A DNA stretch of 59,952 bases, counting the filler, from Sphacelaria rigidula (Eukaryota): the NCBI GenBank assembly GCA_964200075.2. It is 6 parts of 6 records of this genome, joined end to end, with 100 filler letters (N's around TTAATTAATTAA, not from the genome) between each part and the next. Parts side by side here need not be neighbours in the genome. Positions count along the whole stretch, not along the records: positions 1 to 9,910 come from CAXNAA020007505.1; 5 more parts are not named here. One strand, 5' to 3'. The notes under the pieces are model-generated. The model was given only the letters and a program-made list of their open reading frames with translations. It was not told the origin of the DNA and ran no database searches. Below are positions 3,201 to 59,952 of this stretch, in pieces; the stretch's first letter is position 1, and each line of letters starts with the position of its first letter. The position numbers and the translations under genes were made by a program.

Positions 3201-6200
3201 GGTTCTTTCAGGTGTCGCCAATGTGAGAAGGTCATCGTCCTCGACAGACACTCGTGGGGATTGCTCCCCTGTAAGTAGTGGTCGTATCCACGCAGGTTGT
3301 ACCGTCCTGTTGCTCGCTTTGTGCAAAATTTTCTGAACAAACCGCAGAGAAATTACACGTGAAGTAAGCTCCAGCGGTCGAAAAAACTGTTTACCAAACA
3401 ATTCACATCTATCAGCAGCAGCAGCGGCAGCAGCAGTAATAATGGAGGCGGTGAAACAGCTGAGCTACGGTCGAGGCGGTGGGTGACAAAACATGTCTTG
3501 CGCTTGTTCGGCGTTGATATTTGTCATGAAACGAATAGAATGGTCATTTTCCACACCCTGGATGATGACGATAGATTACATTGTCAAAAAATGTGCTGCG
3601 TACAGTATGGAATCCTTTGTCCATTGTAACACACGTGATAGTCTACACTGTACGCAGTACACTTTCTCAATCACGTATTCTTTTGTCCAGGGTGTGCAAT
3701 CTTCTACTTCGAAGCGTCATTTACGAACGGCCGACGGTGCTCATGTCGTGCGAGCACTGTACGTACCTGAGCTAGAGCCCCGACCATAGCATCGTCGTCG
3801 TCAAGCTCTCGATACGCCGCGTCCGACTGCGCATAGTCATCCACGATAGCCTCATCAGGCACACCCAGGGCCGCTAGCGTCAGAGCCATCACCAAGCCGG
3901 TACGATCTTTGCCTGAGGAATTTTTCGGCCATGGTCGAGAATAGAATGTCCAACCAAATGCGATGTTTAGGGGAGGAAGGGGGGGGAGTACATCGCGGCG
4001 TACAATACGGACTGGGATCAAGAACATGGCAGCGGGACAGGCATGCCGAAAAATATTGCTCAGGTATACGCAGACATACCATTACTTTTTACGATGAAAC
4101 GCGTCAGCGTCCGCTTCCAGGGAATGGTCATACTGAGGTGCTGCTGAGCAAACATGATGGAGATGGCATACGGAGTTCCCCCGTGGAAATTGCATCGGCG
4201 TCTGCCGGTTTGATGACTCTGCAATATACGGAATTTGGGTCGGCACGGCAGTAGACAGCATTACCTGTGGGCTGTAGATTGATTGGCCCACACGCTCTTC
4301 AATTTTTCCGATGACAGACAGACGCTCAGCTCAACGTGTGTGCTCTGTACAGTACGGTACAGTACAGTACCTGCGGTGCAGTAGAGCGCCACAGGGTGCC
4401 TTTCTCTCGTGGCCAGCAACCTAAGTACGCGGTTAATCCCTTCCCCGGAGTATTGAAGGAGCAGCTAAGCACGAACGGATTGGACCAGAGGTGACAATAA
4501 GAGAGCACGCCGTCATGATGAGGCAGTAAACGAGGGAAACGTAACGGGGGCATGTGAGCGGCTGCGTAAGAGAATTGGGACGAGGAAGAAGAACGCGGTC
4601 AAATCTGTCATACAGCAAGAAGGGCAACAACAGAAGAAGGGCCACGTGAGCTACAGGCGTGAACAGATACAGCCCGCAGCCTCGAGAAAAACACACAATA
4701 ATAAGAACGACAACAACAACAACAACAACAATACATGCTTTATTCATCCACCTCATAAAACCAAACAAAATAAAGGGGGCCTTCTATGCCCATCCATCTT
4801 TTTCCCCCGTTTTTTCTTCAGACGGGACATTTTGTGAGCGACATGGAAATAATAAAAAAAATGTATGCAACACGGTTGTTGATCTGAGTGATTGATTGTC
4901 GGACACTAACTGGTCATTACCCACAAGAGGGAACCAGGCGTGGTCATGACTCTCAAGCGAGACGTACCCAGGTGAAGAAAACGGAAATGCTTACTCAGGA
5001 AGAAGAAAAGTGGGGGAAAGGGGGAAAGATAGAACAAACAAATGGAGTCAACTGAGAAAAACAACACTGACGACGACAACGAAAGCAAGCAGAAGGAAAG
5101 GGAACGAAAGAAACGGAGAAGAACTAGCATATTAAATAAATGAATGAACGCATGCATGCATGAATACATGAATGAACGAATGAATACATGAATAAATGGA
5201 TATATAAATGAATGACTGATGAAACAAATAATTGAACAAATAAATACGTACACACATCCGGAGTACATAAATGCATCGAAAAAATTGGTGATCACCAAAA
5301 ATCAAATCGGCACACGTACTTCGTTCAAGAGCACCAGACCGCCGGCGTTGATCTCCTTCATGAATATTTCCTTTGCTTTTTTAGTGCACCGGCGGGACAC
5401 CATCGTCGCGGGAGCGAGCGCCATCACAGCCGCCTGAACAAGAACGGGAAAAAACAAACAAAACATCATAACAAAAGATGTCGATACAAACGAAAAAAAA
5501 CATCGACATATATTTTTGTTTCAAACTCCTTAATTTTTCATCACCTCCGCCCTTCGGAAGTTCCCCCTTCCGTTTGCCGAGTTTCCTGTAACAAATGTGT
5601 GTGTGTGTGTGTCTGTGTGTGTCTGTGTGTGTGTGTGTTCCACTTTGAGTACAAATGCCTATTCACGTGTGAGCACGGCTGGCCTCGCAGAGTGTATCAC
5701 ACGATGTGCAAAAATGAGTCACATCACTCGATCAAAAAACTAGGCAAATTGAACATGTACCGGGACAAAATACTCTCAATTAACCCTTGTGGAAGTCGCG
5801 ATGAACAGTACAAACTCCCACATGCGAGCTTTCGTCACCTAGAAAACGTCACTTTGAGTTCGGCGCACGAATCTGTCACGTTAGTATACTTGAACTTAGA
5901 GTGCTGCACCGTTTCGGTAGGCTGCATCATCAACAGTTGCAGAAGAACATCCATATCTTGCCCAAGAAAACGTCGATCGTAAATCGTCATTTTCCCATCA
6001 ACAATTCCAAAAGAGTTAAATTAGCGGCCGAAGTCCGCAATACGAGTCAGACCTCCCACACGCAGATGGGCGGTAGCTCAACGTGAATAAAAAAAGGCGC
6101 GATCATGGCCGAGCGTTCCAACTCGGCACCCGCCCAAAATCGAGGACCTGCTCAAAATCAGGCGGGGGGTCATAAAACATTGAACACGTCCTCCTTCACT

Positions 6201-9200
6201 GCACCGCAGCACAAACACACCCACGCCCTCTTCCATGTGCTGGAGCTGTCACTGTACTGTGGCGTGTTCACGCATTGCGAAGACAGGTTGGATTGCCTGA
6301 GCTGCGACGTCGTTGTCTTCGTCTCTGTAGAAAATAATGTTGGCCGGCACACAGTGCTGTCTGCACACTCGTGAAAACTTCATGGTGCGTTGGCTCTCTC
6401 ATCTTCCGTACAACGAACAAGGCGCTGCCCGCTGCTGTGCCACTCTGTTTAGCTGGTGCTGTGCGTTAGGGTAACGTACTGTAGTGTACTGTACAGTACT
6501 GCGTGGTGTTGAATCATGTGAGTGCGGTCGTGATTGGTCGTGAGATTATATCGCACGAACACTAGGTTTTAGACTACTCTACAGGCAATTCCCGAGTAGA
6601 ATGAAGCAATCTAATTCGTAATTCCCACGTAAATCTGTCCCGCTGCAATATTCAGTCTGCCAAAAATCTACATCATCACGTGGCGATGCGTAGTAGCCCT
6701 CAAACTCACGCTAACAATGAATTGTTTGTGCGTACTGTTGATATTACTCGACCGTGCTGGCAAACAAGAGGGTCGGTGAAGACGAAAAAATATCAAAATC
6801 AAGTGGCCACGCTAACTGGTCCACTATTTTCGCGGGCTAAAACACAATTTTGCCAATCAAACCCTAATCAACGCGCAAAAAAGAAGCCTCGAGTCAACCA
6901 GGAAGATGTGTATCGACCAGCACTGACCCACACTGGAACATGGCAAACTCACCTCAAGCTAGAATCTCTCTCGACCAGCTCCGCAAAACAATGGAACATG
7001 GCGATTTAGGCGGACGAAACAAATATCATTCAACCCTTCGAACCCACCGCAAGAAGGATAAAGGGTTTTGTAGGTGAAGGCACAAGAGCTGTTGGTGTTA
7101 CTGCTATGTGCACTGCAGAAAAAGGCTTCACAGGATGGGAGATGTGTGTGTTAGTATGTCTATATCAATAGCACTATACTGGTGGATGATTAGTATTGCC
7201 ACGGCGGAATCTTAAAAATGCAAGATGGTTTATATATATATATATATATATAATGCAGCGGTTTTGTGGTAGATGTGTGCAATACACGTTACACGAGAAA
7301 AGAAACTATAATTTGCTCTTATAGGGAGGCTTCAGAAAAAGGAGCACCGCGCAATCACCATCGGATGCATTAACTACTGTAATAGCATGTAATAGCGTGA
7401 GAGCGTAGCGTCAAATTTGCAACACGACCACCTGCAAGACGCCTTGGAGGTGAACGTGATGCACTACCAAATAGGTACAACGTATGTGTTATGTAGTAGT
7501 CCGGCTCACAAGTAATCAGCACAAGCTGAACTCTCCCGACCCCACCCTCTCCTCCTTGCTCCGTCTTGAAAGGGATGCGTGGTTAATGGTGAAACGACTA
7601 AGGCAAGCAACAAATGAGTACGCCCCCCCCCCACCCTCTCCTCGGGCGGGTGAGAGACCCCGGAGGCAAAACAAAATGCGCGTTTTATGTTTAATTCGTC
7701 TTCAGAATCGAGATCATTATTCACGGCTGAAGGGCAGCGGTTTCTTTGTACAAACTTGAGCTTTACTGATCGATAAAACGCAGGAGAAAAGTATGCACGC
7801 TTGATTTAATTCAATATTTTCTGTGCAACACTCGTCTCCGGCGAGTGCCCCTTGCTCAAATACACAATCGTAATTACGCGTGTTAACAGCAAAAGCTGCC
7901 GCGACTCTGTCGCTTCCGTCAGTCATGCTGCTGGTCTCCACGTCGGGGTACGCTACTATTATAGCGCTGAGGGCTGCTGCAGCAGTGATCACACTACAGC
8001 TTAATCATGACAAAAACATGTAAAAAATCGTCGGAATATGACCATAAATTCGTGTCCACCTAGTGGACAACAAAAACGGCAGGAGGTGGCAGTATCTTGA
8101 TATGTTGGTACCTCTACTACCCCATTCTAATAACTTCACATCGTAAGTTGTTTGTGCAACCCACATATACATTTAGATTTTGGTACTGTACCAGTACCCA
8201 GCCATCATTATGGTTTATCCCGAGGGGCCACATATCGGGAAATCCATGCACCACCGCTACCCCCCCCCCCCCCCTACCCGCGGTCGAGAATGAGGAAAAT
8301 GCCAAATCAATTCGGGGAAAACCTCATTCTTCCTATTCCTCCATATTATACGGAATTGAACGATCATTTACATATCTCCGGGTTCGCCTCAACGTGAGCA
8401 GCCCAAAACCGAGGAGTTTTGGTGTGTCAGTTGTTTTTGTGGCGATCGGGGAGCAATTTTGCCGGCTGGAAAATGACTTTTGAGTCGCGGCGATCACTGG
8501 ATAATGAATATTGAGTCCCCCTGGCTTCTACAAGACCGGTTGTTACCGACCTAGCACTATCGCAGTGATACGGCCGCCATGCTAAGAAAGGCGGTGTAGG
8601 ACGAACAGTTCTGTACTGCTACCGAATGACTGAAATGGGCATGCAGTAAGTTGATTGTGCGGTGTTACCAGCCGACACGAGAATGTTCCGATATTATAGA
8701 CGTGCACAATGTTTGAGTTGCAGATAATCACGTACTTTGCCCGCGTTTGGGCAGACAGCCGTGTTCATACAACGCATATATCTACATATCGCAATTCATA
8801 CTGTACTGCGACACAAGAGAGGGAGAGGTTGCGAGGGGGAATGATATGGACGTGGTGTTGCGAAAAAGAATATCCAACATCGAGGTAACGGCAGTCATGA
8901 AATGTAATTAACGTGATATTGATATTATTATGCCCGCAAGGGCAGAACCATGCAGCAAGCTCCCGGGTGCCAGGCGTGCGCGCCCACTTCACGTTCACCC
9001 CTTGCAAGACTTCTGGAATCTGCGGCACATTTCCAGCACCGTTACCCTAAGCGCTTTGATCTTCACTCCCTGCTTCTGCGGGCATGTTTTTTTCTGCTTG
9101 CTTTGACTTACCCCTACCATCTACCGTTTTGGTACACCCGGCGCAGGCCGATGTTACCGGCAAACACGTGCGGTGGAGTACAGCAACTACTATCGCCATC

Positions 9201-9825: not shown

Positions 9826-9910
9826 CTACACAAATCGAGGGCAGAATAGGACCGGGGAGGGGCGCACTCATGATCATGCATGCCATAGTCATGAGACCAT
9901 CTAACTCGCG

Positions 9911-10010
9911 NNNNNNNNNNNNNNNNNNNNNNNNNNNNNNNNNNNNNNNNNNNNTTAATTAATTAANNNNNNNNNNNNNNNNNNNNNNNNNNNNNNNNNN
10001 NNNNNNNNNN
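9911..10010. other. Artificial contig linker N44-TTAATTAATTAA-N44
   Basis: Identical 100-bp spacers at 9911-10010, 19920-20019, 29929-30028, 39937-40036 and 49945-50044; the palindromic core puts stops in all six frames. Confidence 0.97.
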
Positions 10011-11940: not shown

Positions 11941-13980
11941 TCAAGAGCAGCTGGCTCAACACTGCATGAAAAAGCAGAGGGAGAGAGAAAAAAATATATA
12001 GAGTAACAGCAGTACAACAGCACCTGTTCTACTGTTCTTGTTTGTGCTTTGACGACAAAAAAACGAAAAAAAAAAAGATCGAGCGGGCAGAGACAGCAAA
12101 CGCTGAAAATGTCGGGGTCGGAACTACTCCGCTACCGCCCAAGCAAGACAGGCAACGGAGAGGGTTAAACCGGTAGACTTGTAGGTTAAACTGGCAAAAA
12201 ATCTGACAGTTTGCCAGAGGTGCGCCGAATAATAGATTTTAGCTTGGGTGTCTCTCAAACATTTGGAGCAGCGTCTCTTTAAAACTTGCGAAGGCAGACG
12301 CCACAAGAGAAGCGTCTCGATCCTTTTATTGAGTGTTCACGCGCGAGAGATTGTTGACCAAATCTGTAGTTGTGATTCGATACGTGGTATTAATTTCGAT
12401 ATATACACATGTTAACGTTGTTGGGATTACGAGTATCATTTTCAAGTAGGGTAAAGTTGCTGTGTACACACACGGCCATGCGTCGTCTTGCTCGGGTATA
12501 CTCTCGCGGCGAATTGTTGCAACTATGCAAACTGCTGTCGAGTATAGTAGACCAGTACTTCATTGCCTATGGCTTTGACCAGAGAATCGACTTCGACATG
12601 GCACGTTTACCGCTTCCATCCACACCAGGGGAGAGATTGGTTGATCCCTTGAGACCACGGGCTCATCCCGAGGAAGGGGGAGGGTTCAAAGTGCGACAAA
12701 TGAAACTAAAAATAATAAATATTCAATAGTAAAAAAATAATCATCCACAGGGCATCAATGAGGGCATTGCCATGGCACGACGCGGCTGATGTGAAACCTC
12801 AGCAGCTCTTCGACCATGCCGTACATCAAGTATAATCCACTTACGTTATTGTAAAAGAAACAACAGCACTACGGTAAAGAGGAAGGGAGAAGCGGCGCGC
12901 AGTCTTCTGACTGACCCAACGCAAGGACTCGACACGTCTGACTGACCAGTATGGGTGTGCGCGACTGCCTTTCGGAAGAGTTTGCGATACATTCGTGTAC
13001 TTTTTTGTCACCATTTCGCGCTGGGGTTGCCTGTTGCTGCTTCTTTTTGTGCGAGTAAGGTGCTGTATGTGAGGATCCTAATCCTTACAACCAACGGAAA
13101 GTGACCTCCCTCAGACTAATACAGAGACCAGAACACAACAAACGTTACAATTGTCGTTGGTGGCACTAGTACGCTGACACGAACTTGTCTCTTCGCGAGA
13201 GTCACGATGTTCCACGGCACTCCTACCGGGGCTTATCACGGGAATTCTTGTCATGTCCCGTCGTTTTTTTTTATGACGGGAAGACGGTCCCATCCCGTGC
13301 CACTATTTCTGTCACGGGAAAACGTTCCCGTCCCGTTGTTTTTTGCCGACGGGGACACATTCTCGTCCCATCTCGACCCAACGCGAAAAATTCTCCGTCT
13401 TATTCTGCCCCGTTCTCACGGGAAAAATCCCGACAGTTTTCGTGGGTAGTCCATCAGATTGGATGGGACTGCCCGTGAACGGAACGGGGATTCCCGTCTA
13501 ATCTAACGGCGATTTGAGTAATATTTTGCGCAGGTAGAATGTCGGAACATGCTTTCGATGTTCGGGTTCCGGTCCCTTCCGCAGTCCATTCGTATCGTAT
13601 GTGATATGAATCGATGAGCGGTCAAGATTATCGTGACCACGCGCGGCTTGTCACGGAACTTCGGAGCGGGACAGTTTTTCCGTCACTACCTTGGGTCGAT
13701 TCGAGTGTTGTTGTCGGATGTTGTACATCAAAACCGGTCGATTTCTTCGTGAACGTGTCCAAGCATCGCTGCACCGGACTAAAGTCTCATCGCGCTTGTT
13801 TCAGGGCGGGAGTTACACATGCACTTCGGGAAGGACGGGACGGAACAACATTTCCCCTCCCGTTTCGTCACGTCAATTTTTGCTATGGGAAACCGTTCTT
13901 GTCCCATCCCGTCAGCTCCCAAATTTTCTCGTCCCGTCCTGTTATTCTTTAGCAACGGGACACTGTTTCCGTCCGAATTA

Positions 13981-14229
13981 TGCTACGGTAGGGATGCACG
14001 AATATTTTCTGGGGTTAGAATTTGTTGGGAGCCCTTCGTCTTATCCAAAACACAACTTACGAAATATGTGAGAGTACTCCAGGGGATTATTATTATTCCA
14101 ATGTGCCAGGGGTAGCCCGAATGAGTTTGCAAACGGGGATGTCCTAGCTCGTATTCTTGTGCATCTAGAATCGTTAGGAGCCCCTGAACCAGACAAGATT
14201 TTGCGCAAAAATTGCACCCTACCGTAGTA
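13981..14229. mobile_element. ~250-bp MITE with TIR TGCTACGGTAGGG(G)TGCA
   Basis: TIRs visible; inverted copy at 16089-16333 and truncated copy at 29866-29928. This copy is nested in a larger TIR element (~13641-14305). Confidence 0.8.
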
Positions 14230-14609
14230 TTGCTCGTCCCGTCCCTGTTTGGCGATGCTTATTCCCGCGTCCCACCCCGTCCCGAACTTGCGTGACAAGT
14301 CGTGACTTCCACCAACCAATTCTTCTGTAGGAAAAGCTCGTTTGCCTCACAGATCGCGATGTACGCGAGGAGGGCGCATTTCGGCGACCATAACGTTTCG
14401 ATGGTGAGGCTTGTTCATTGTGGCATCCCTGCATTGCCAACTTCACTCAGTACGATCTCATCTAAGTTTACTACTAACTGATGTGTGAATTTAAGAGAGC
14501 AGCGAAATCTAACAACACTGTTCATTATCCATACGGATCTGGACAATTGCAACATTCGAGGTATCTTTCGATACCTGCGACTTCTTAGCAATCATCCACC
14601 ATCACCCGG

Positions 14610-16085
14610 AGCCTACGACACAGCATGGGGAAACAAACGGGCTGTGGAAAAGTTGTGGGAAAGTGAGATCAGAGTAAATTTGCGGAGAATGGTGAAGAAA
14701 AAAACGACAGAATGTGAGAGAAGTGTCATGATGCTAGACCGGAAAATATCGAAGCCGTTCTTTTTTTCATAAGAAGTTGCACAAGGATGTACGTTTTCAC
14801 CCACTTTATCCAAAGCATTTGCATTTATTAACCAATGACCTGATAACAGCAAAAGAAGCAGCAAAGCGGTGAGGGAAGATACGGTGTCGGGATCGATGTT
14901 CGCGGATGATTTCATGGGGATATCAGGAACAACAGAAGGGTTGCAGAAGCAAATAGAGCAAACGCTAGAAGACACCAGAAAAATGGAGAGTGGCAGCGAA
15001 CGTCGATAAAATGCGCGCTACTTGTATGTAACGAAGGTGAGAAGAACCCGGTAGAGTTCAAGTGAAAGTGGGGAGAAGAAGAACTGCCCATCGTAGACCA
15101 GCATACAGACTTGGTGCAGATTTATAAATATACTGTTTTTGGGGTGCACACATGAATAAAGCAATATAAAAGAGTAAGGCACATATAGGCAAGATAGACA
15201 GACGTGGTCGTACGAGATTCGTACCTAGATACCAGGATTAATATATATGTACTATGATGAATGTGATTGTACCAAAGCTGGAATATACAGAAGAATGGGA
15301 GAGGAACGCGAAGTTGGAGAAGAAGCAGGATACAGTGCAGAGATGACAGCAGCTACGAAAATACTTGGGTCCTCAAAAACGACGAGTAATACAGCATTGA
15401 GAGCAGAGTTGGGAATATACCCACATGTAGCAAATAGAGAAATTATAACATTCAACGGCAATACACGTGCGAAACGTGTCAAGGACGAGATCACCAGTTG
15501 GGGCCGTATGGAGGAAAGTCAATAAAGAGCAGACCGGAATAAGGTGGGATAACGTAGTTGAGAAAGTATGGAAGGGCATAGGATAAAACCAAGCGAGATA
15601 ATGTCCATAGGTGACTGTGGTGGGCACCAGACAAGATAATAGACATGATAGAATTAGTAAGGAAAAATGAGCGCTGAGACGGGACGAGGAAGAACACCTG
15701 AATATATACGGGGGGTTGAGGGAGGGAAAAAGGGATGAAAACAATAAACAATTCTACATGGCCCCATGGACTCCGCGAAAAATTGAAACTGCGATTCCGG
15801 GTGGGGGACGTGGACTTGCCAGAAAGAAGGTAGATACAGAGCTATACTAGTAGTCGAGCGGAGGAGAAGGAAGTTGATGCACAGAATTACCCCTGTCGTG
15901 AACCAGTAGAGAGTACAACTCATATCGTAGGAGAACGTGAACTATGCAATAAGGAACGGGACGTGTTAAAGGGGGGAAATTGGGAAACAAACGAAGGTGG
16001 CATGAAATCGTTTGGTAAGTTAGATGGTAGCGAGAAAACGGTGGAAGTACAAGGAGATAAATGGCGGCCGCAGACAGGGAATGAG
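14610..16085 (+). mobile_element. Degenerate LINE-like retrotransposon, family A (RT C-terminal half plus Cys/His knuckle remnant)
   Basis: AYDTAW, VAQGCTFSP, MFADDFMGISGTTEGLQKQIE...KWRVAANV, and ES.THIVGE near 15910. Interrupted at its 3' end by a MITE at 16089. Confidence 0.8.
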
Positions 16086-16088
16086 CAA

Positions 16089-16333
16089 TGCTACGGTAGG
16101 GGTGTACTTTTTTCGCGAAATTATGTCTAATTCAGAGGCTCCCAACGATTCTAGATGCACAAAAGTATGGGTCAGGGCATCCCCGTTTGCAAATTCATTC
16201 TGGATATCCCCATCACATTGAAGTAGTAATCCTGGCGTACTTTCACATACTTTCATAGGTCGTGTTTTGCATGAGAGAAAGGGCTCCTAACAATTCTAAC
16301 CTCAGAGAATATTTGTGCACCCCTACCGTAGCA
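16089..16333. mobile_element. Copy of the TGCTACGGTAGGGG MITE, at the 3' end of the family A LINE
   Basis: tgctacggtaggggtg...cacccctaccgtagca; internal sequence is the reverse complement of 13981-14229. Confidence 0.8.
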
Positions 16334-17096
16334 TCACTCCGACGACGAAAACAACGACCGTCGCTTTGATTGACTTCGCCCCGACCGCAGCCTGCACTTG
16401 CCGGCCCCAGCGCGGGAGTCGTCAGAAAGCTCACGTCGTGCTTTCGCACTCCACACTGCACACGACCACAGGCGACGTAGTCCCTGTATGTGTTTGTAGG
16501 CATCATCTCCACACGAATAAATGACCGGACCGCGCCGTTTGTATTCTTTTGTACGAAAACACACAAGCGAACGCTAGAAAAAGGGTGGAATAACGTCATT
16601 CATGCCACTCCCGCTTATCGGAGGTCACACGCAACAGTAGTTAGATTATCGGAATCAATTGAGCGTACCACGTTTTCCGGCCTCTCTGTCCGCGTTGCCG
16701 CAACTCGGTGCATTTTCTTGGCCCACGCCGCGAAGTCTTCTCCGTCCATGCCGTCCCAGGGCCGCCGCCATCCATTCTAGTGTCGCATATTGCAATCATC
16801 AAACATGGCGTTTTCGGGGCGGTGGGGGGGCGGGGGATGTCATCTTGTTTTTGCACTGAAAGTGTTAAACAAAATGACGGAAAGGCGATTTAACTGACGC
16901 GTAATGTATAGTCTGGCGGATCTACGGATCTACGTAAAATAGGGTGCTAGCCAGCCTCGAAAGTATGATTTGCATAGGCCACTATACTATATCCAGACAG
17001 GCACTGGGCCCACGCCACAGCTTGGAGCCTAACCCCAGTGATTGCAAAAGCGGTGCATCGCCAAAACATACACAGTCTCAAGCATACCCCGTACTT

Positions 17097-19919: not shown

Positions 19920-20423
19920 NNNNNNNNNNNNNNNNNNNNNNNNNNNNNNNNNNNNNNNNNNNNTTAATTAATTAANNNNNNNNNNNNNNNNNNNNNNNNN
20001 NNNNNNNNNNNNNNNNNNNAGGTTGGGGTTGTGCGGTTGGTGAAGTATGGGGAGACCAAGGGGGAGGGGGGGGGGGGGGGGGGGGGGTATTTGATTCCAC
20101 CAAAAAGAGGCTCATAGTTATGTCAGACGATCTGCCGCACTCGCGGTGCGCTTGTATTTGGTTAAAAACGGTGCCAAGCAGTATGGATGAGTGTTCCATA
20201 TTTAAAACGAGCTCGTTTGAACAACGGTTACTGCTTTCAACGACGATTTGACTTGAAATTCCGTGCGAGAAGTGGCCCAAAATATCGCCCCCCTCCCTTA
20301 CGTAGGATCACTCATGCCGTGTTGGGTGCTTTTTGTGTTACTACTACAGCCAAGATGCTGCTGGCATGTCGGCATCCTAACCCCAATGGCGTATCGCCTC
20401 CTTGTTTTACGCTATGAATCCAG

Positions 20424-27331: not shown

Positions 27332-30300
27332 CTCTAAGGGCCATTCGTAGTTGCCACGTTTTGAGTGGGGGTCTGAAATGTAGTTATATTCTGGTTTTTA
27401 TTTTTTTGGAATCTTTTTGTTTGAAAAGTCAGCATAGCCTTTACCCTGCTTCTCTGTGTTTGGGGAACTATATATCCTCGAAAAATATGAACAAGGATCT
27501 GAGTTTTGTGCGGTATCATGTGTAAGTTTGGGCACCCAACACTCGATATTCCCGCGACAACAGGGGGTGGGTCCGAGCGCGTTATTATCAGCGTTGTCGT
27601 GCCACCGTAGGTCAATACCTGTGCCCGTGTTATGGAGATTGATGTGCGCTGGGCACAAGCACGTTCTCCACGAATCTAACAAGAACGACGATTAAAATCT
27701 CCCGTCGCAACGAATAGACCGCAGGCGGTGCACACCGGAGAACCTGAACACACGTCATCACAGAGAGTGAGGCAAATTATTGAAATGCTCAGGAAAGGAC
27801 GTGTTGTACGTGCCTGCGCATGAAATTTCGAAGAAGTTGGATGTCAACGTGGCGGCATGCTCAGGAGCCAACCATTCGGTAGATCCCCGGGTGGCTGGAA
27901 AGCACGGGTTAGGGTGCAGTAGGTATTTTGATTCCATTCTATACGGTCACATTGGCTACGTCGCCGTTCATCGTTTTGCTCTTCGAGCCTTGCTCTGGCA
28001 AACATTGTAAGCGCGCTGTCCTCTCGGCTATACGCTGGACAAAAAGTACGTGACGAATACTCGACGATTTGTACGTGGTATGGACTGTCGTTTCAGAGAA
28101 GTGCTTGACTCAATGCCGCACACATTCAATACAGCTTCCAGGTAGGTGACATTCTGAATGCTCCCGACCTTTCAGGACGTCTGTGACATGATTTTACCCA
28201 GATGTCCTCGAGGATCTTTGCCTCGTAGGATTTACCGCGGTAAAACCACGGTATAAGGTAAACAATACGTTATGATCATTCGCAACTACCATTTCTATCC
28301 AAGCCGTCACCGGGGAATGGTGTTATGCCTTCCCCATCCAGATCGTTACCGAGCAATTGGTATTATCCCATTGCCGTCCAAACACTTACCGCGCAAATAC
28401 TGGCATTCCTGGAGTTTCTCATTGCCACCCAAACAAATGCCGCGCAAACATGATGTCCCCAACAACTGTACAGCGAAGCAATTGAACTTCCGACTTCAGT
28501 CAACATCACGTTACCTCAGTAGGACAGTATAGTGAACGTGCACAACTTTTGGTGGATAGGTCGGACCTTCAATCCCCACCAGGTCACTTTCGATTTCTTC
28601 AATCTTTTTCTGTTTCTTCGTGTAACATTTTTTCTGGGATGACGTGTCATTTTCTTGAATTACGTTTTTTTTCATGCTGTTCGTTGAGGACCATATTATA
28701 CAGCTTTTCTCCGGTCGACCCGCGCGCGCTGAAGCCATTACTAAGTTATAATGTCAATATCTGATTTTCATAACTTTAGATATAAGCAGCTGGTAGATTG
28801 TCGACATGGTGTCAGGTTCGATTATACAATCTCGTAGCGTTCAGTTTTCACTTCGAACTTCTGTCTAAAATAGGATGGCGGTGTCCCTTCACGGTTTCTG
28901 GTCGCTGAATCAGTGGTTGGTATTGCCGGGCGTCGCTCTGGATGTATTTCGTCGTTTTCCTTATTTCAGCTGCGAAAGTCTGCCTGTGTTCAGTGTCTAA
29001 TACTGTAGTGTATTTGAGTTTTGCAAACAACAGGCTCAGGTATGATTCGTGTTGTCTCGATGTCTACACAAACCATAGAGCCCTGGGTTGACACTCTGAA
29101 GAAATACAAAAAAACACGTGATATCGTACATCATACATTATCAAGGTGACTGGTTACTGTACCAATCATCACCGGGGTGGTTAGTTTTTATCCAAAAGTT
29201 ACCGTGCGCTACAAAGGTGGTTGGTTCTTGTGCCGATGAGTACCACGGTGGTCAGTTACTCTCCGAAAAATTACCGTACATTACCAAGGTGGCTGGACAC
29301 CGTGGTTGACATTAACAACCTCAAAATACACTTTCTACGATAATAGCCCCCCCCCCCCCCAAGAAAAAAAAACCAGCCCAAAAACGTGTCACGAAACAAA
29401 TAGTCATACAGCGCCTGAGGTTTGGGTTCAGGCTGCATAAAGCGCGTCATATGGGCGACATTGGCAAGAATGAACCCGAGCGTGGGAATTCTCAGCTGCT
29501 CGTTGTGCTCGTCTCTTTCCATTTACAAGTCTATGTTTGGCAACGCCGTAATCGACATTTTTTTTTGTCTTCCTCTTTTTTTTTTTCAACTCATTGAAAT
29601 AGGTTTTGATAGAGATGTCCCAAGTTTGGTCTTCATCGGTTTTGATGAACCCTTTTGGAGCCCACCGACGATTTTTTTTTTCTTGAATCGGCATCATTTT
29701 GACTTGAAAGTGACTGGAGACGATGTCGATTCACAAAAACAAAAATCGTCGTTGGGTTCCAAAAGGATTAAAATACTCTATCACGCACGTTGAGTGGTGC
29801 CCCCTGTAGACTCTAGCCATCATTGTTACCTAAGGTTAGGGACTTTTGTAGGTGGAGTTGAGTGATGCTACGGTAGGGGTGCACAAATATTTTCTGAGGT
29901 TGGAAATGTTAGGAGCCCTTGATCTCATNNNNNNNNNNNNNNNNNNNNNNNNNNNNNNNNNNNNNNNNNNNNTTAATTAATTAANNNNNNNNNNNNNNNN
30001 NNNNNNNNNNNNNNNNNNNNNNNNNNNNGTCTCGAAAGGGATGCGTGGTCAATGGTCAAATGACTAAGGCAAGCAACAAATGAGTACGCCCCCCCCCCCC
30101 GTTTCTAGATGGTGTTTCGCTCTGTTTTCCTTGGGTCCGTCCATCGTGTGACCACTGCTCAATCCCTCATGAATGTGCGACAACCAATCGAACTCTAGGT
30201 ATAGTGTTGCGACCTCCGGGACCTGTACAGCATCATGTTCGGTTGCTCTCGCTTTGTCGTTTTCAGGACATAGATTTCCCTACTGTTGAGTAAAAAGAGT

Positions 30301-40795: not shown

Positions 40796-41004
40796 CCGCA
40801 TTCCTTCCTCAAGGCTCTGCTTCAATTGGCGGGGGGCGGGGGGCGTACTCATTTGTTGCTTGTCTCAGTCGTGTGACCATCGACCACGCATCCCTTTCGA
40901 GACGGAGCATGGTCAAAGGCCACACGACGAAGGCAAGCAACAAATGAGTACGCCCCCCCCCTCTGCCCCGCCTATTGAAACAGAGCCTTGAGGGAGGAAT
41001 GCGG
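40796..41004. repeat. ~210-bp inverted repeat built from two head-to-head family A termini plus inverted flanks
   Basis: ccgcattccttcctcaaggctctg...tcgacca [loop ~23 nt] tggtcaa...cagagccttgagggaggaatgcgg. Confidence 0.85.
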
Positions 41005-41414: not shown

Positions 41415-42190
41415 CGTGGTGGTGCTGTCAGCGCGGGTGCAAAAATATCCATCGAAATCAACCGCCGCATCAGCGCGGCGTGAGTACATCTTCGAAGGAT
41501 AGTTCCTAACTCTACGATTGGCCAACTGAAGTCTTATCCTTGAAAGTCCGACTGCTTGAAGCGGAGGTGGTGGAAGCTCTGTTGTACGGATGTGCCACAA
41601 GGACGTTACCTTCTGAGGACTTCGACAGTCTGCGCACTGCCCATCACAAGCTTCTGCCACGAGTGGTCGGATTCCGCAGGAAAGACCGCTCGGGCTACAA
41701 GCTAGAGTCTTCTCTTTTGTACAGAGCTGCACTCGAGAAGACCAACCGCAATCGTACCGAGACGACTAGCCGCAAGCGTCAACTCGGTTCGCGGGAGCCC
41801 TTGTTCGGCAGGCCGAAACATGCCTCCCCAAATGCATGATCATGAGTGCACCCCCCCCCCCAGATGCATAATCCACGGTCGGGTAGCCGCACAAGGACCA
41901 AAGGAGGCTGCCGCCCCTCCAACCACTGGGGGGCACCCTCCGCGAGAACCTAAGCACACGGGGCTCTTCCACGGAAATGAGCGCGACGGAAATGGTTCGT
42001 CTACGGTGCAGTGGTTGACGAAACACATGATTGGATCACTGCGGCGAAGGGCATGGGCAAATGGCATCTTGGAGTCGATAAGGCGGCGGAAGAGTTCGAG
42101 GACACGTGGCGACGCGAAGGCAAACGAGAATCGCACCGCCGCCGCAAACGAGAGGCTGCTGCGTTGATAGCCGCCCATCGGAGAACTGAC
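41415..42190 (+). mobile_element. 5'-truncated fragment of the same RTE-like LINE family
   Basis: Aligns by eye to ~46450-47170 (KVRLLEAEVVEALLYGCAT...LRTAHHKLL; AAKGMGKWHLGV). Confidence 0.85.
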
Positions 42191-52905: not shown

Positions 52906-55900
52906 TCAAGACGCTTTGTTCACGTGGTATAGCACCCAGTCCTTGATGTTACCGATGACTTCGTCCGTGTTGTTTGTGAGCAGGTCATGAAGCCAACCGT
53001 CCATCTCCTTCAGCTCCCTGCAGTGATTTTACGGTGCGCATCATGTCATACCAGGGTCGTCCGCAAACCAAACCGATACAGTTCGGGCAAACGTTCGGTA
53101 GAAATCGGAGCTTTCCGTAACGCACGACAGGACGTGCCAAGCAAATCACACCATGTATTGCTCTTAGTGTGCGCTTTCAGAACGGGGTTTTCTGTTTGGT
53201 ACAGATCGAATACACTAATATTAGTGCGATAAGGATGGGCCGTCCTTTTCTATCGTACGTGCGAGAGGGCTGTTACCTCCTACATCAGGCGTAACAGCCC
53301 TACAAAACAGCTCGCGCGCACGGGGGGGGGGGAGTGGGGATTGTAACCATGATCTTGCATGCCGTAGCTATTGGACTATTGACCTCGTATACCTACGAAG
53401 CTGGGGCACGCCGGGTTTTCGCCGTACGAGCCTCGCGATCGCCAAGTGCGGAGCGCCGTGATGTGTTCGGCGAGGCAAGGGCGTGCTGCAGCCCAAGACT
53501 GTTCGGCCCCAAGCATACTACTTGCCTTGCATATGGATGACAGCCTCGAATGTGTCGCTTCATTTTCTGGTCTGACCACTTTCAGAGACAGCCACGGATT
53601 GCACTGCCTCAGGGTTTCTCGCCATTTCAACACCACCTGGTACGATCACCCCCTTGCGCGGAGTTGAGGCTCTACATTCCGCACAATGTGTGGTGTGTGT
53701 GTTGTCGTCCCATCGATTCTGGACGCCGGTCTACACCCTTTATCATATGTGGGCGCATCAGCCGGGGTCACACCCGAGGAAGGTCAACACAGAAGTTTTT
53801 TTCGTTCCTTGATTGTTTTTAGTACTTCTCCTTCCTTCTGCGGTGCTTACCTTTATTCTTTATCGCGAGTTCAGCAGCCCCTTTCCCTCGTCGACCGATG
53901 AGTCGAATTTTGTGTATCCACAACATACTCGCTCTCCACTGTAGGGCATGGTGTGAAAAGAAAATGCCAGGTCGCTCCGAGAATTGAACCCACAACCCAT
54001 CCGTCGGAAGGTTTCGAAGTTACCAACTGAGCCACGGGGACCACCGGCTACAATATGATTTGTAACTTGACCACCATTCATGGCTACCGCGAAAAACCAC
54101 AAGCACGAAAAACCCACGGAAACCTGGTTGCCTAGCTTACGCAGTGACGTGTTTTATAGCATCGTTGCCAACCGACACCAACCCTGGGGGGGGACCATAC
54201 ACGGAGGAGGTGGCGGAGGGGGGGTACTCATGATCTCGTATGGAAGAAACGTTATGAGCACCTAAATGTTGGACGTGTCTCTGTTAGAAGTACGAACGGT
54301 GCTCCGTCTCGAAAGGGGTGCGTGGTCGGTCAATGGTCAAACGACCAAGGCAGCCAACAGATGAGCATGCCCTCCTCAGCCCCCCGCCCCCCGGTACATG
54401 CCGTGCAAATCAGCATCGCGGGTTTGATCATGACCATCAGTAATTTCGCGCCGCATCAATCGTCGTCGAATCAATTAACCATATTTCACTACAATAGTAC
54501 CCACGTTCTCACGCTTTCGAGGACTAAAATTGCATACTTGTCTGATATAAACCCCAAAATCCATCTTCCGGCGATCGAACCCGCATTTTCCCGACCCGGT
54601 GGGTTACGTTGGACCATTAGACCACCGGAGAGCGGCGCACGCCAAACTTCAAGGTTGTGTTCTGTAGGATAAACCGGCAGAAATTCCGGTATTTACACAA
54701 GTAAAATAAGGATATTCGATCCGTAAATACGAGTACTTTTCCCGATCATACCTCGCCAACCGATTTATCCCACGCGCGGGTATACTCTATTAATGTAGAA
54801 GACAACCCTGGAAAAATCGACCAGCGTAAAGCCTTGACGTGGATTCAACCCTACTTACCTCCCCACCTACCGAAGGACTACTGGTGCGAGACTGTGTCCT
54901 CCGGCGGCATGTGAAGCCCCGCTTAAAACAAAAGCTCACCTTATCGTGAGGAAACCACTGTTGTCAGGCCGTTTCTTATCGCTCAAATTTCATGATTTTC
55001 CCCCCAGACAACGAATCCCCCATATCTCAGGGGCAGTGAATTTCAGATGTTGCCGAAGGAGCGAGTCTTTCAGATTGTCTTCACCTACAGTAGGCGTTTG
55101 TAAACGGTGGGGGTAGGTCGGTAGGGGTAGGTCGGTACTAATCATCGCACCTGTTTCTAGGGTCGTCCTTCGGAGTGATCGCTTTCTCCATCAGCTCTGT
55201 CGATGGGCCGAACTGTACAATGGCTGTTCGGAGTACATGGCCCAACACACGCGCGCGTACACACACACGCAAGAAGAAAAAAGGGACACGGGCGGCGTGG
55301 GGAAAAAGGACGAAAAAAATAAATCTAGCTTACTCGCTGTCTTCTTCGTGTTTCATTTGATTTGGTTATACTTGGCTGTTTCTGCTGGGAGGATAAGTAA
55401 GAGGAAAATACGGAAAAAAACCCCATGAAACGCAACTTCTCGGAAAGAAACACCTGGCGGCAGCGGAAATGGAGAGGGAGCGGGGAGGGGGGTTACTCAT
55501 GATTCTGCATGTCGTAGTCATATGACCATTGACCTCGCGTCCCTACCAAGCCGGAACGGAGCACGCCGGGTTTACGCTGGACTAGGCTCGCAGTTACCAA
55601 GCGCGAAGCGCCGTGGTGTGTTCGGCGAGTCGCTTGACGAGTGAGCTGCATCCTGCTAAGATTCTCCGACCCGAAGCGTACTGGATATCTTTCCTATGGA
55701 TGACGGCCTTCAACAAGCTGCTTTCTTTCCTGGTATCGTCACTTCCAACTCCCGGGAATAAGGGGGAGGAGGATTGATGAGGCAGGGTCATTTTTTGCTT
55801 GCCTTGGTCATTTGACCATTGATCATGCATCCCTTTCGAGACGCAGCACCGTTCCTACTCCTGCTAGACACCTCCAACATTCGGGTGCTCATTACGTTTT

Positions 55901-58403
55901 CTTCACACAATAAAACACCAGAAACCTTTTACATATCTGATCCCTTGTCTGATTCGCCGTCTGCGGCCGCCATCTATCTTCCAGTATAGCCATCGTTTCC
56001 TCACTACTGTCTGATATGTCAAACGATTTCATACAACCTTTCTTTACTTTCCACATTTCCCCCTTCAACACGTCCCATTCCTTCTTGTATGGTTCACATT
56101 CTGCCACTGAGGGAATTATACTCTCCACTGCAGGGGGGCAGTGTACTCATGTTCATGCATGCCGTAGTCATACGACCATTGACCTCGCATCCCTACAAAG
56201 CCGGGACGGAGCACGCCGGGATTTCGCTGGACCAGGCTCGCGATTACTAATCGCAGGGCGGGGGGAGGGGGGGGGGAAACACGAGTTAGTGTAACCTTGA
56301 ATTCTCTGCTCACCTCACCGTTCTTTGCATTTCGCGGACGTATCGAGCACACGTCCCTGATGAAACACACTCTGCACGACCACCACCAAACGCCTCAAAG
56401 GTACCTACATATTAGATATGATTCCCTCTTCTCAAACGCTCCGTGATAATGCTGCGATGCGGCCAACCATCTCGGAACCGTTGTCTTTTCCTACACTCTC
56501 TTCATGAAATTTGTATCTGCACGCGAACAGCAAGGACAACACGTGAACCATTCCTTCCGGGGTTTTTTTCTTCAATGTGCCGTGTACACACCTACATCCT
56601 CGCGAGTACCCCTGGTTCAAACAAACGAGCACACGAAGAAGCAACCATCTGACTCACCACCATCACGGGCATGCTAAACCAACACTTTCGCAAAGCAAAA
56701 CCGATAGGGTCCGAAAAAACATTCTCAGCGTAGATTGCGAAGGAGCGTGACCGGTGCCCGAGTTTCCTCCATCTCCGCTGTGTTTCTGTTGCCGCCAGGG
56801 GCGACTCTACACACACACAAAAAACGGGGTACTGTATTGGCCATGGTTTGGTTTGTGGTGAGAGACGGCGGCTGCGCCGATCGATGTTTCCAAGTCGATC
56901 ATCATCAACGTGTGTTGAACATATGCACGATGAGAAAAAAATATTTCGCATGCATCTTGCGGTACGCATGGCCAGAAGAAAAAAAATGAAAAAAAAATGA
57001 AAAAAAAATCAAATTCGACACGGCTTTACACGGGGCATCAAATCTTACTCAGCAGCACTTGGTGACCAATTGACCTGTTCTGTTTCAGGGAAGGTTCACC
57101 CCCCCCGCGCCCCCCCTTCTCTCTATACACTCATTTTACTCAGCGAGCATTCCGCTTTGCTTTTTTTGGGTACGTTTATCTATCTTATCCGCATATCTAT
57201 GTTGTGGATAATGACCTCAAGTAACAGTTAATGTGCGACAATCAATCAACCTATCTATACATGACGATGCTACGCTATATAATAGTAGCCTCTTTACACG
57301 GAACAGTGCTACAATATTATAAACGTTATACCACGAGTAGAAACGTCAACACACGAGCGAGATGTATGCACGTGTGGACATATCCGACCAATATTGGCTC
57401 AGACACTACTACAGCGAAGCGGTCCATCTCGTAGGGTCAAGTCAAAGAACATACTCCATACAATCAACCAAGCCATCCCGCATGCACTACTGCATCCAAG
57501 TACCCATCAGGCATTTAGAGACCCCTCCCCCCTCTCTCATGACAAGAGGGACGCAGCATGCACACCACATTCCATGCTTTACCTAAGTGATATATCCTTA
57601 ATCCCCTCCCTTGCTCTTTTTCTCGGGGTGGGGGCTGGGGGGTGGGGTGGTTAACGAGTTTGCTGACTACACCGAGATTCGAACCAACGTCCCAAACGTC
57701 AGAAGATTTAGAGACTTTCCGACTGGGCCACCGGAGTGACCGGCGTTTTCATGGCACCTGCAAAAAGCAAGAAACTCAACGCGAAAAAACACCACGAGCG
57801 AGGCTAGCTATAATAACTACCTGCCTACCCCGCTTGAATTACAGTGCGAGTCCCACTCCAGTGCGGTCGAAATCACTCGGCACAGCAGACAAGTCCAATC
57901 CACAACAGAGGGCTAATTTCATATTACGTGATCCCACTTCATCAGTAGAGTGCGGCCATGCACTCTGTTCTTAACCCTTAGACCGCGAGGTTAGTCTTCT
58001 GTTGACTCGGCATCAATTTCAATTGAAAAAAATTATGCATGATCCAGAAAGACTAATCTTGCGGTCTAAGGGTTGGCACAGTATCCTCATTCGTGGAGAA
58101 TGACCACTGAGCAACAAGAGGTACATGTCATTGCCCATCGTATCCCAGCGAGGTCCTCCTGCTTGTGCTCCCCATGCCACGATAAGGGGGGATCAAGTGT
58201 CCCGATAATGTTGTATATCCAAGCAGCGAACGAACATCGGGGGGGAGGGGGGAGGGGGGAACTGCCATGCTCACCATCTTGAGGGTCGTGCATGATGAGG
58301 AAGGGGAACTGCACTTGCGATAGCCGAGCGCACACCGTGGCCACCATGTCCATCATATTGAGTCCCATCCTGAACTTCATGTTGTGTCCCCATCCAATAG
58401 CCC
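52906..58403 (-). CDS. Alpha/beta hydrolase (monoglyceride lipase/lysophospholipase, Hydrolase_4-like), last three exons; 5'-partial
   Basis: Phase-consistent exons 58275-58403, 55151-55223, 52906-53017 (TGA 52906-52908). The joined peptide ...LSQVQFPFLIMHDPQDAIV...ELKEMDGWLHDLL...EVIGNIKDWV carries the catalytic Asp and His motifs of this family. The Ser nucleophile exon is outside the contig. Confidence 0.82.
53700..54048 (-). mobile_element. tRNA-derived SINE, second family (head also at 57660-57744)
   Basis: Minus-strand head ccccgtggctcagttggtaac...gggttcaattctc (A and B boxes). Confidence 0.6.
55780..56131 (-). mobile_element. 3' end of family A LINE (links the RT region to the conserved terminus)
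   Basis: Reverse complement matches 15905-16075 and continues into ...TCTCGAAAGGGATGC.TG.TCAATGGTCAAATGAC.AAGGCAAGCAA, the terminus found in the short copies. Confidence 0.8.
57975..58072. mobile_element. ~98-bp piggyBac-like mini-element
   Basis: ttaa|cccttagaccgcgaggttagtctt...aagactaatcttgcggtctaaggg|ttgg. Confidence 0.65.
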
Positions 58404-58656
58404 CTGTTATCCGACATCAGTTTGGTACATGTGTTGATATATTTGATACATTTTCATTTCTGTCAAACATTTATTCATCCACCACAGAACAGGGTTAGGC
58501 GGGACGGAACAGAGCGGAAAAAGAAGAAACAAAGAGGGGTACAAGTAGGAAGTATGGATGACACACGTCACGACATCATCAAAACATGTTACTAGAATAT
58601 GACTTTCCACAGATACTATACTACAACTACCACGAAAAATGACCCCACGGTAGAAT

Positions 58657-59025
58657 GGAGGAGGAGGGGTTACTAATGATCTTGCATGCCGTATCATATA
58701 ATCTTCGACCTCGCATCCCTACGAAGACGGGATGAAGCACGCCGAGCTTTCGCTGGACAAGGCTCGCGATCAATCACCAAGCGCGAAGCGCCGTGATGTG
58801 TTTGGCGCATCGCATGAAGGGTGAGCTGCATCCTGCTGAAGGTTGTCCTGCTCGGCCCGAAGCGTGCGTACTGAGTATCTTATAGTTGGATGCCAGCGTA
58901 CAATAAGTTGCTTCATTCTCTGGTATCACCACTTCCAGAGCTAACAATGAGTCCCACACTGCCTCATGGATGTTTCACCATATGAACACTACGTGGTACG
59001 ATCATCCCCTCTGCGGGAAGTTCGC
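58657..59025 (-). mobile_element. Family B LINE-like 3' fragment (sister terminus ...GCATGCAAGATCATGAGTAC-Cn)
   Basis: Copies at 9854-9910, 53322-53665, 55482-55755, 56132-56247, 58657-59025 and 59108-59330 share one end next to a G-run and vary at the other. Decayed minus-strand coding remnant (VVIPENEAT...HITALRAW). Confidence 0.7.
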
Positions 59026-59952
59026 GTTCCGTGTTCTCTGCCCCGCACAATATCGTCTACTGTACAAGTAGCTCCAGCACCAATATGTTGACCGACACAA
59101 AAAAAAAGGGGCGGGGGAGCTCATGATGTTGCATGCCGTGGTCATGAGATCATTGACCTCGCATCCCTACAAACCCGGGGCGGAGTACGCCGGGTTTTCG
59201 CCGGACCAGGCTCGCGATCACCAAGCGCGAAGCGCCGTGATGTGTCCCGCGAGTCGAATGACGGGTGAGCTGCATCCTACCAAGATTGTTCGGCTCGAGG
59301 CGTACCAATTATCTTGCGAACAGATGGAACAAAACATTGCACACCGCGGATCTGAAGGCTGGCTGAACACAGCGAACAAACATGCCGAGGACAATAACGA
59401 CTCACCGGGTTTGCCCCAGTCATCTCTCGCGACCATCGCCCGATCTTCCTCGCGCTTCCACACCGCCAGAGGATTCCTTACTACAACAGCGCCACAGCGA
59501 GGGTTGGGGGAGGGGGACGAGGGTGGGGATCGAGCCAAAACCTTCGGGCGCCACAGCTACCCTTTCCCTTGCCTTACCCTCATACGAACTGTTCCGATTC
59601 AAATCCGATCGTGTTCACAAGATGGAGGCGTGTGTGCTCAGGATAAATGAGCGGGGAAATACTCCCGGACTTGTTTGCTTTTCGACCACCGAGTTATGCT
59701 GCGATAGCCCCCCCCGTCATAAAAGTAGATTGTTTGAGGAGGCAAAAGCTACATGCAAATCAACATCACCGAAGCGTAGCGCATCGAACAGCTCGGAACA
59801 CCATGCTTGGCATCATTTTCGCCGATGTCGATCATACGAGGCGCTTCCTACAGTCTGAAATCAGCTGCCGTGCGCAGCATAGCTATTCTCTTCGTGAAAT
59901 CTCTAGGGCTGGTTTGGGGGGGGCGGGGGGCGCGCTCAACGTGTTGGCTTCC

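Follow-up and report, generated by a model that had tools for sequence, protein, structure and literature searches.

Oligo(C) tails behind the coding end of a LINE and the 3' end of its non-coding partner in Sphacelaria rigidula

Described relatives of the C-tailed terminus

Among long interspersed nuclear elements (LINEs), mammalian L1 is of the relaxed type, ends in a poly(A) tail and nicks its target at TTTT/AA; Kibi, Koshi, Waldo and Mino are LINEs specific for microsatellites. We consider here a stretch of 59,952 nucleotides from the brown alga Sphacelaria rigidula (GenBank assembly GCA_964200075.2), the whole of which is called the window in what follows, where a terminus of about 65 nt recurs with a run of C behind it. 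These repeats are best explained, with a probability that we put at about 0.8, as the 3' ends of a LINE with a single open reading frame (ORF) and an endonuclease of the apurinic/apyrimidinic (APE) type, which we call family A, and of a non-coding partner, family B, both C-tailed and both probably inserted by target-primed reverse transcription (TPRT) primed at a G run.

The closest described systems belong to Ectocarpus, the transposable elements of which have been curated in a study of 2025 (PMC12477816, Genome Biol). In supplementary file 1 of that work, RTEX-1_Ec32 is entered with 'single EN-RT ORF; (C)n 3'' (EN-RT standing for endonuclease and reverse transcriptase) and with a target-site duplication (TSD) that is 'C-rich', and RTEX-2_Ec32 with '(C)n termini/TSD'. 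Two entries of the same catalogue are non-autonomous: RTEX-N1_Ec32, of 607 bp, is described as '60 bp 3' end 83% RTEX-1_Ec32/RTEX-2_Ec32' and 'can be present in tandem', and RTEX-N2_Ec32 has 188 bp. The words 'C-rich' and 'homopolymer' are absent from the main text of the study, and passages on RTE-X there make no mention of a C tail. RTEX-1 has also been reconstructed in Saccharina and is called recently inserted in the passage that deals with it (PMC4421812). A search of the literature on C-tailed retrotransposons gave no relevant report among the matches listed. A first, sequence-only reading of the window named no described oligo(C)-tailed LINE, without excluding that one exists; the implied novelty of the kind of element fails, because the table entries for RTEX-1_Ec32 and RTEX-2_Ec32 already record (C)n 3' tails, together with C-rich TSDs.

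Family A is most probably an RTE-X element of this sort. The best named homologues of its protein are Ectocarpus sp. proteins, P0003 with 59% and P0004 with 71% identity, the latter ending in ...NGAPSRKGRVANGQMTTASNK, the same C-terminal peptide as in family A. These matches point to a brown-algal host; a dinoflagellate, considered at first, was rejected on their account, and the dinoflagellate spliced-leader motif has no match when up to 3 mismatches are allowed. Like RTEX-1_Ec32 and RTEX-2_Ec32, family A has a single EN-RT ORF, a (C)n 3' tail and perhaps TSDs of the 'C-rich' kind (the two clear ones in 11 copies start C-rich), and it exists as thousands of mostly truncated copies. It differs from them by its host, by a protein that is 59-71% identical to the Ectocarpus proteins as against 88% to an intact copy recovered from another assembly (L008, see below), by a copy number that is apparently far higher, and by size, the Ectocarpus consensus measuring 5.5-5.9 kb while the intact ORF of family A takes up about 4.1 kb. 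Family B can be likened, by description, to RTEX-N1_Ec32 and RTEX-N2_Ec32, being non-coding, abundant, arranged head to tail, and having its last 55-60 nt or so and the C tail in common with the LINE; its longest copies in the window reach about 350-400 bp.

A wider comparison is instructive. With L1, family A has a logic in common: a homopolymer tail would pair with its complement, likewise a homopolymer, where the bottom strand is nicked, copies are truncated at 5', and the TSD opens with the letter of the tail. The letter is C, however, and not A, the tail cannot come from polyadenylation, the 3' module is shared with a partner, as in the stringent type, and the clade is another one, with a single ORF. 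Insertion beside a simple repeat of the same kind as the element's own end is what families A and B have in common with Kibi, Koshi, Waldo and Mino; the clean TSDs of the window are mostly non-repeat, in contrast to what is expected of those elements, which argues against strict site specificity and in favour of a liking for short patches of C/G. Indeed, a strictly microsatellite-specific LINE is ruled out by the two clear TSDs, CCCCACCCTCTCCTC at 7540 and CTCCCACAC..GATTG at 39450, neither of which is made of repeats. The distinction between stringent and relaxed recognition of 3' ends, and the repeat tails of plant RTE, (TTG)n, of the I factor, TAA, and of UnaL2, TGTAA, are set out in the relevant part of PMC3747384. 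Families A and B resemble these systems in that LINE and partner share their 3' end and in having a terminal repeat of a kind thought there to guide initiation; they depart from (TGTAA)n, (TAA)n and (TTG)n in that the repeat unit is one nucleotide, that the module lies inside the ORF instead of the 3' untranslated region (UTR), and that no convincing hairpin is found in it.

A coding end followed by C, and its partner

The repeated terminus is the end of a protein-coding frame. When the translation of the fragment at 14611-16085, with its stops read as X, was used as query, one long relative was found, P0001, of 1360 amino acids (aa) on a contig of 4903 nt. It carries Exo_endo_phos at aa 170-392 (E 3.4e-12; Exo_endo_phos_2 also matches) and, C-terminal to this endonuclease, the reverse transcriptase (RT) domain RVT_1 at aa 740-989 (E 9.8e-31). 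Its C-terminus, ...NGAPSRKGCVVNGQMTKASNK / ...SLRSRNGAPSRKGCVVNGQMTKASNK, is what the fixed end of family A encodes: in tblastn, aa 1342-1360 fall on 7558-7614, and the C-terminus maps likewise to 30030-30080, 40908-40852, 54238-54327 and 56140-55791, so that the terminus represents the last 20 codons or so of the LINE's single ORF. The TGA stop is followed by GTACG and immediately afterwards by the C run, a gap of 5 nt that leaves practically no 3' UTR; any 3' recognition module would thus be contained in these same codons, with GGATGCGTGGTCAATGG as its core.

The body of the LINE is represented in the window by the decayed fragment that served as query, on which the FADD motif and the thumb lie on the plus strand, the same strand as the terminus, and to which RVT_1 gives a weak match (E 0.05). 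A copy on the minus strand, 55788-56140, joins the two: its segment 56130-55949 matches 15904-16085 at 75% in blastn, and both fragments fall on P0001, at aa 821-1308 for the first and aa 1245-1360 for the second. Two proposals of the sequence-only reading are borne out in this way, namely that the copy near 55780-56131 links the terminus to the RT-bearing sequence of 14610-16085, and that we are dealing with LINE-like, 5'-truncated ends with an oligo(C) 3' end; the terminus itself proves to be the coding end of an ORF with APE and RT domains. L008 aligns with the whole of P0001, aa 1-1360, without stops, and no copy of the window extends that far. P0001 and L008 each show one such frame, apparently without a separate ORF1 upstream. 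Among the 120 homologues listed, 19 have the motif G[CR]VV.G at 4-8 residues before the stop, with varying residues in front of it; a search of a protein atlas returned generic LINE clusters only. The decayed body is bracketed by inverted repeats, 13970-14251 and 16071-16344 (about 280 bp, 79% identity), pieces of which recur at 29860-29928. These repeats may represent the termini of some other mobile element, and they may explain why the last 52 codons and the tail are missing from this copy.

Across the window, nhmmer with a profile derived from 12 copies recovers 13 occurrences of some 65 nt, all with E <= 1.1e-7, the next match having E = 5.5; two further stubs of about 20 nt lie at 41828-41850 and 54225-54237. 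The window being a composite of six pieces of about 9.9 kb, joined by linkers N44-TTAATTAATTAA-N44 at 9911-10010, 19920-20019, 29929-30028, 39937-40036 and 49945-50044 (with N10 gaps at 21439 and 43781), 'dispersed' here means spread over separate pieces: the 13 copies occupy four of the six, seven of them clustering at 53.3-59.3 kb, and those at 9864 and 30029 are cut by linkers. Within the first 20 nt beyond the terminus, at least 8 C are found in all 13 copies and at least 10 C in 12 of them, as against 2.6% of controls (19,777 random 20-mers); a C run of at least 5 within 25 nt follows ten copies, as against 2.3% of controls. Pure C runs vary from copy to copy, from about 5 to 13 when loci outside the window are included, and some tails are interrupted by T or G. 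The 5' ends differ, from about 20 nt to more than 1.4 kb upstream, while the 3' end is common to the 13 copies. Three copies of the window begin at the same base, at TGCTCCG, and one may speculate that microhomology with C-rich ends of the target is favoured at this C-rich patch.

The description of many dispersed copies with a fixed end followed by a C run therefore stands. That of a single repeat family stands in part: the shared terminus is real, but it belongs to two families, A and B, and in family A it is coding sequence. No A run or poly(A) comes after the terminus in the 13 copies of the window or in five copies from other assemblies, as had been anticipated, and a relaxed element of the L1 kind is thereby ruled out. 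The copies have one fixed end each, which rules out a DNA transposon with terminal inverted repeats, in agreement with the first reading; the sole inverted pair, 40835-40961, belongs to a palindrome that spans the flanks.

The clearest insertion is that of 7540-7643, which had been proposed as a copy of some 75 bp within an exact duplication of 15 bp; so it is, the 15-mer ccccaccctctcctc being the longest word common to the two flanks and a length reached in none of 300 shuffles. The element, of 68 nt, ends ...GCAACAAATGAGTACG and is followed by C10, the last four C of which open the second ccccaccctctcctc. Since the duplicated target, CCCCACCCTCTCCTC, has only four C, its remainder being ACCCTCTCCTC, whereas the filled site has ten, six C arrived with the insertion, 7555-7628, a solitary unit in otherwise unique sequence. 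For the minus-strand copy at 39378-39455 an imperfect duplication had been suggested, and it is recovered around 39383-39450 as the interrupted CTCCCACAC..GATTG, with a shuffle p of about 0.02. Both clear TSDs, out of 11 copies tested, start C-rich; together with one 5' flank that reads C10TC6 and with the head-to-tail arrays described below, they speak for a preference for C/G tracts.

Copies outside the window were sought with a pattern of 19 nt that does not include the C run, in metagenome and genome collections and in viral contigs. The collections gave seven matches, of which five are real copies, all followed by C-rich sequence with pure C runs of 7 to 13, and two (L004 and L005) fit the 19-mer by chance; viral contigs gave none. 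After ...GTAC, the copies continue with G and C8 (L001), G and C10 (L002), G and CCTC7TCCTCCC (L003), C9TC9 (L006) or G and C13 (L007); three stand on marine-metagenome contigs and two on contigs of metagenome-assembled genomes (MAGs). L008 is the entire contig of L007, binned in a bacterial MAG, and holds an element of full length, the frame of which stays open for 1382 aa without stops and is 88% identical to P0001; the copy ends in GTACG and C13. On the reverse complement of this contig, at about 440-525 and some 550 nt upstream of the intact ORF, there is an inverted, diverged, module-like fragment, ..GGTGCTCCGTCTC..GGTCGGTCAATGG..CATGAGTTC. Eukaryotic LINE contigs of family A (L006-L018) were found in two bacterial MAGs, G001 and G002, with ten LINE-protein matches in G002; they are probably binning contamination from a host alga.

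Apart from the linker-cut copy at 9864, family B is represented by five longer copies at 53.3-59.3 kb, each of them on the minus strand. Its members are alike for 200-350 bp, and their resemblance to family A is confined to the last 55 nt or so and the C run, AGGGATGCGAGGTCAATGGTC..ATGAC.ACGGCATGCA..ATGAGTA. An upstream indel, seen by eye in the alignment (A4), appears to break the reading frame of family A in family B, and yet the module is kept, which points to a constraint on the module as nucleic acid, at the level of RNA or DNA. The G[CR]VV.G ending of 19 among the 120 homologues listed agrees with such a constraint. Family B thus looks like the non-coding, non-autonomous partner of the family A LINE, in the classical arrangement of LINE and partner with a shared 3' end. 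Within its copies as delimited here, a ribozyme or a Pol III-type head derived from tRNA, 5S or 7SL found no support: ARAGORN found no tRNA gene, and Rfam had no match at gathering score over the whole window and none at E <= 1 over 53200-59400. A structured recognition hairpin in the module is likewise not supported, with one compensatory change in the nine pairs of the consensus fold.

Table 1. Copies and parts of families A and B, by position in the window
Position	Strand	Feature	Evidence
7540..7554	+	5' TSD, ccccaccctctcctc	exact 15-nt match; 0/300 shuffles
7555..7622	+	family A solo 3' module, 2 nt + 66 nt; last 19 codons and TGA stop, then GTACG	tblastn, aa 1342-1360; nhmmer
7623..7628	+	six C beyond the target, element-derived oligo(C) tail	comparison of the two TSD copies
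7629..7643	+	3' TSD	second copy of the 15-mer
9864..9909	-	B-type 3' module, 5' side cut by linker; 3' flank gcccctcccc	
14611..16085	+	decayed family A LINE body: C-terminal half of RT, thumb, CxC..H..C motif; aa 821-1308 of P0001; without last 52 codons and tail	tblastn
30029..30100	+	3' module of family A, shortened at 5' by linker, and C12; 72 nt 100% identical to intact L008	
39378..39450	-	family A solo module and C5; interrupted TSD CTCCCACAC..GATTG	
40831..40909	-	family A solo module and C6GC6; left arm of palindrome	
40900..40961	+	partial family A module and C9; right arm of palindrome	
41828..41861	+	B-type end of ~20 nt (..atgcatgatcatgagtgca) and C11, within a copy of a different LINE	
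53322..53665	-	family B, ~340 bp, end ..CCCCACTC11	
54218..54237	-	inverted B-type end of ~13 nt and C7, adjoining 5' end of next copy	
54238..54392	+	family A, 5'-truncated (aa 1321 to end), decayed C-rich tail	tblastn
55476..55747	-	family B; 5' end behind C-rich tail of upstream A copy	
55762..56140	-	family A, 5'-truncated (aa 1245-1360), decayed tail; joins terminus to RT-bearing body	
56133..56254	-	family B, 5'-truncated; 5' flank C10TC6GCCC (56255-56276); tail ACTGC6	
58660..59022	-	family B	
59108..59317	-	family B; tail CTC5GC4T9	

Abundance, arrays and C/G homopolymers

The module is very abundant in sequencing data. Four public runs that contain the unique flanks, one of them labelled 'algae metagenome', were used, and their contigs aligned to 7250-7950 at 80% likeness: 49,082 contigs in X1 (depth of the unique flank 65), 17,822 in X3 (about 10), 37,682 in X4 (28) and 5,357 in X5 (6), nearly all of them confined to 7538-7657. 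In each of the four runs, the consensus of the loose contig ends behind 7630-7636 is a run of C (counts in X1 of 310, 328, 824 and 795), and the loose ends before 7557 carry upstream LINE sequence in 508, 377, 457 and 139 contigs of the four runs. A contig across the whole 7540-7643 insertion, or across its empty site, was not found among the contigs listed.

Copies also abut one another. Joints of the type 7632>7557, which go back 76 nt, occur in 12, 5, 9 and 1 contigs of the four runs and are copies set head to tail, touching through the C run or through a few bases. In the window, a chain on the minus strand, 56254>55494, consists of a B copy (56254), an A copy (56131) and another B copy (55747), the next copy beginning in each case shortly behind the C-rich tail of the one before; the first of them has C10TC6GCCC as its 5' flank. 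Preferential priming from the G run that faces an older tail would be expected to give arrays of a single orientation.

The window is rich in C/G homopolymers well beyond the recognised copies. Runs of at least 8 nt number 23, against 0.9 +/- 0.9 under a first-order Markov null, an excess of about 25 times, and runs of at least 6 nt number 63, against 17.3 +/- 3.9. About seven of the 23 long runs adjoin recognised copies, as judged by eye, and about two thirds have no recognisable module, for example C14 at 63, C13 at 2628, C15 at 8260, G22 at 20066 and C14 at 29347.

Two junctions are head to head. The pair at 40844-40952 belongs to a palindrome of greater extent, 40796-41004, in which family A ends face each other (40835-40889 and 40907-40961, 85% complementary) and in which the 48-nt flanks beyond each C/G run are inverted too (40796-40843 and 40957-41004, 85%); it looks like a snap-back or an inverted duplication, and not like two independent insertions. 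At 54218-54240 an inverted B-type end of about 13 nt with C7 stands directly against the family A copy of 54238, on its 5' side, an arrangement that is reminiscent of twin priming.

A different LINE family is present at 44802-47300 on the plus strand and at 41417-42183 (RVT_1, E 3.7e-18; 29% identity to P0001 over aa 674-918), and its copy at 41.4-42.2 kb carries a B-type end of about 20 nt with C11, at 41828-41861. Host genes are hinted at by an exon with Y_phosphatase3 at 3707-4081 on the minus strand (E 8.4e-12) and, weakly, by GPR180/TMEM145 at 42986-43306 on the plus strand (E 0.0014, below the curated cut-off); no other Pfam hint of a host gene came from the 184 six-frame ORFs of at least 90 aa.

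Priming at a G run and its alternatives

The proposed course of an insertion can be told in a few steps. The RNA of the element would end in C residues, and the ORF protein would recognise specifically, in the stringent manner, the module of about 55-66 nt that precedes them. The endonuclease would nick the bottom strand at a G run or next to it, and the ...GGGG-3' end so freed would pair with the C tail and prime reverse transcription. Early stops of the cDNA would leave variable 5' truncations, and a staggered second nick would create TSDs with a C-rich start. Every insertion would provide a fresh C tract, so that subsequent copies would enter the tails of their predecessors in like orientation and form arrays head to tail. 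Annealing of the C tail to a G run is a plausible priming step, mainly on account of one clean copy, in which six C were added to a target with four.

Several points weigh against this account and have to be kept in view. The C run on the RNA, hence a transcript ending in C, the annealing step and the preference of nick site are what we infer from the anatomy of the insertions. Clear TSDs accompany two of the 11 copies tested, so that the target preference is drawn from few clean cases and from contig summaries, and the argument from added C from one copy, that of 7540-7643. At the L008 copy the longest word shared by the flanks, which would mark the TSD and the 5' end, has 8 nt, and no TSD is visible by eye at the 351-bp copy of L006. 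The consensus fold of 18 modules is weak, at -4.3 kcal/mol with nine pairs and one compensatory change. The placement in RTE-X would follow from matches to Ectocarpus proteins and from descriptions in a table. Finally, the ratio of summed contig depth to flank depth suggests some 10^5 copy-equivalents of the module, a rough figure that is not a copy number.

The alternatives differ mostly in where they place the origin of the C run. It could be target and nothing else, if a site-specific LINE entered pre-existing (C)n/(G)n with an RNA ending in ...GTACG. C/G runs are certainly common enough in the window for this (23 of at least 8 nt, where 0.9 are expected), C tracts lie on both sides of some copies, with C tracts as the loose ends before 7559 in 128 contigs of X1 and 97 of X4, and the Ectocarpus table has '(C)n termini/TSD' for RTEX-2_Ec32 (PMC12477816). 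Yet the target at 7540-7643 offers just four C, followed by ACCCTCTCCTC, where ten C stand at the 3' junction, the duplication at 39450 is no homopolymer, and many C runs of the excess may be what is left of former tails, so that we regard this origin as quite improbable. Somewhat less improbable, though still unlikely, is a C run made during integration, by an RT that adds untemplated G to the nicked primer or slips on the terminal C, with a length set anew at each insertion. This would fit the variation of the tails, from about 5 to 13 pure C with occasional T or G, and slippage on a terminal repeat of the template is the model proposed for the TGTAA of UnaL2 (cited in PMC3747384); against it, source copies such as L008 carry a C13 that read-through transcription could copy, and in any event it alters just one step of the explanation by C-tailed RNA.

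Units of about 76 bp, module and C run together, might also have multiplied as a satellite, through unequal crossing-over or replication slippage, and the joints that go back 76 nt in all four runs would agree with it, as would the three window copies that start at TGCTCCG. This reading we hold to be very improbable in view of the solitary unit at 7555-7628, with its unique surroundings and its TSD of 15 bp, of the many other 5' ends among the copies, and of the thousands of contigs that leave the unit for unrelated sequence. Homopolymer G/C artefacts occur on some sequencing platforms, as poly-G ends of reads for instance, and C runs could in principle be errors of sequencing or assembly; the chance of this is negligible, for the runs are internal, with unique sequence and TSDs beyond them, and the window shows them just as do three contigs of marine metagenomes, two of MAGs and the contigs of four runs.

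Retrotransposition by C-tailed RNA primed at a G run thus retains our preference, and it lends itself to a wider but tentative proposal, to which we would give less than even odds: that the RTE-X LINEs of brown algae start TPRT in a distinctive way, the oligo(C) of the transcript pairing with the G run of the nick, and that what is required in cis is a module of about 66 nt doubling as the last 20 codons or so of the ORF. If this were true, the solitary copy at 7555-7628 with its TSD would be a natural minimal unit of retrotransposition, the G[CR]VV.G motif would be kept for the sake of the RNA and not of the protein, and the self-seeding of C tracts would explain both the excess of C/G homopolymers, about 25 times, and the copy-equivalents of the module, in the order of 10^5.

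What can be said of the family is that the oligo(C)-tailed habit of RTE-X, so far present only as notes in a supplementary table on Ectocarpus, appears also in a second host, and there at very high copy number. To the passages of PMC12477816 that deal with these elements we add the gap of 5 nt between stop and tail, the fact that the shared module is coding in the LINE, a solo unit of 66 nt with its TSD, and the scale of the expansion. For those who annotate such genomes, many homopolymers and contig breaks find their explanation in LINE ends and the C tracts attached to them; for those interested in mechanism, the element would provide a natural, non-A counterpart of the pairing of tail and nick in L1.

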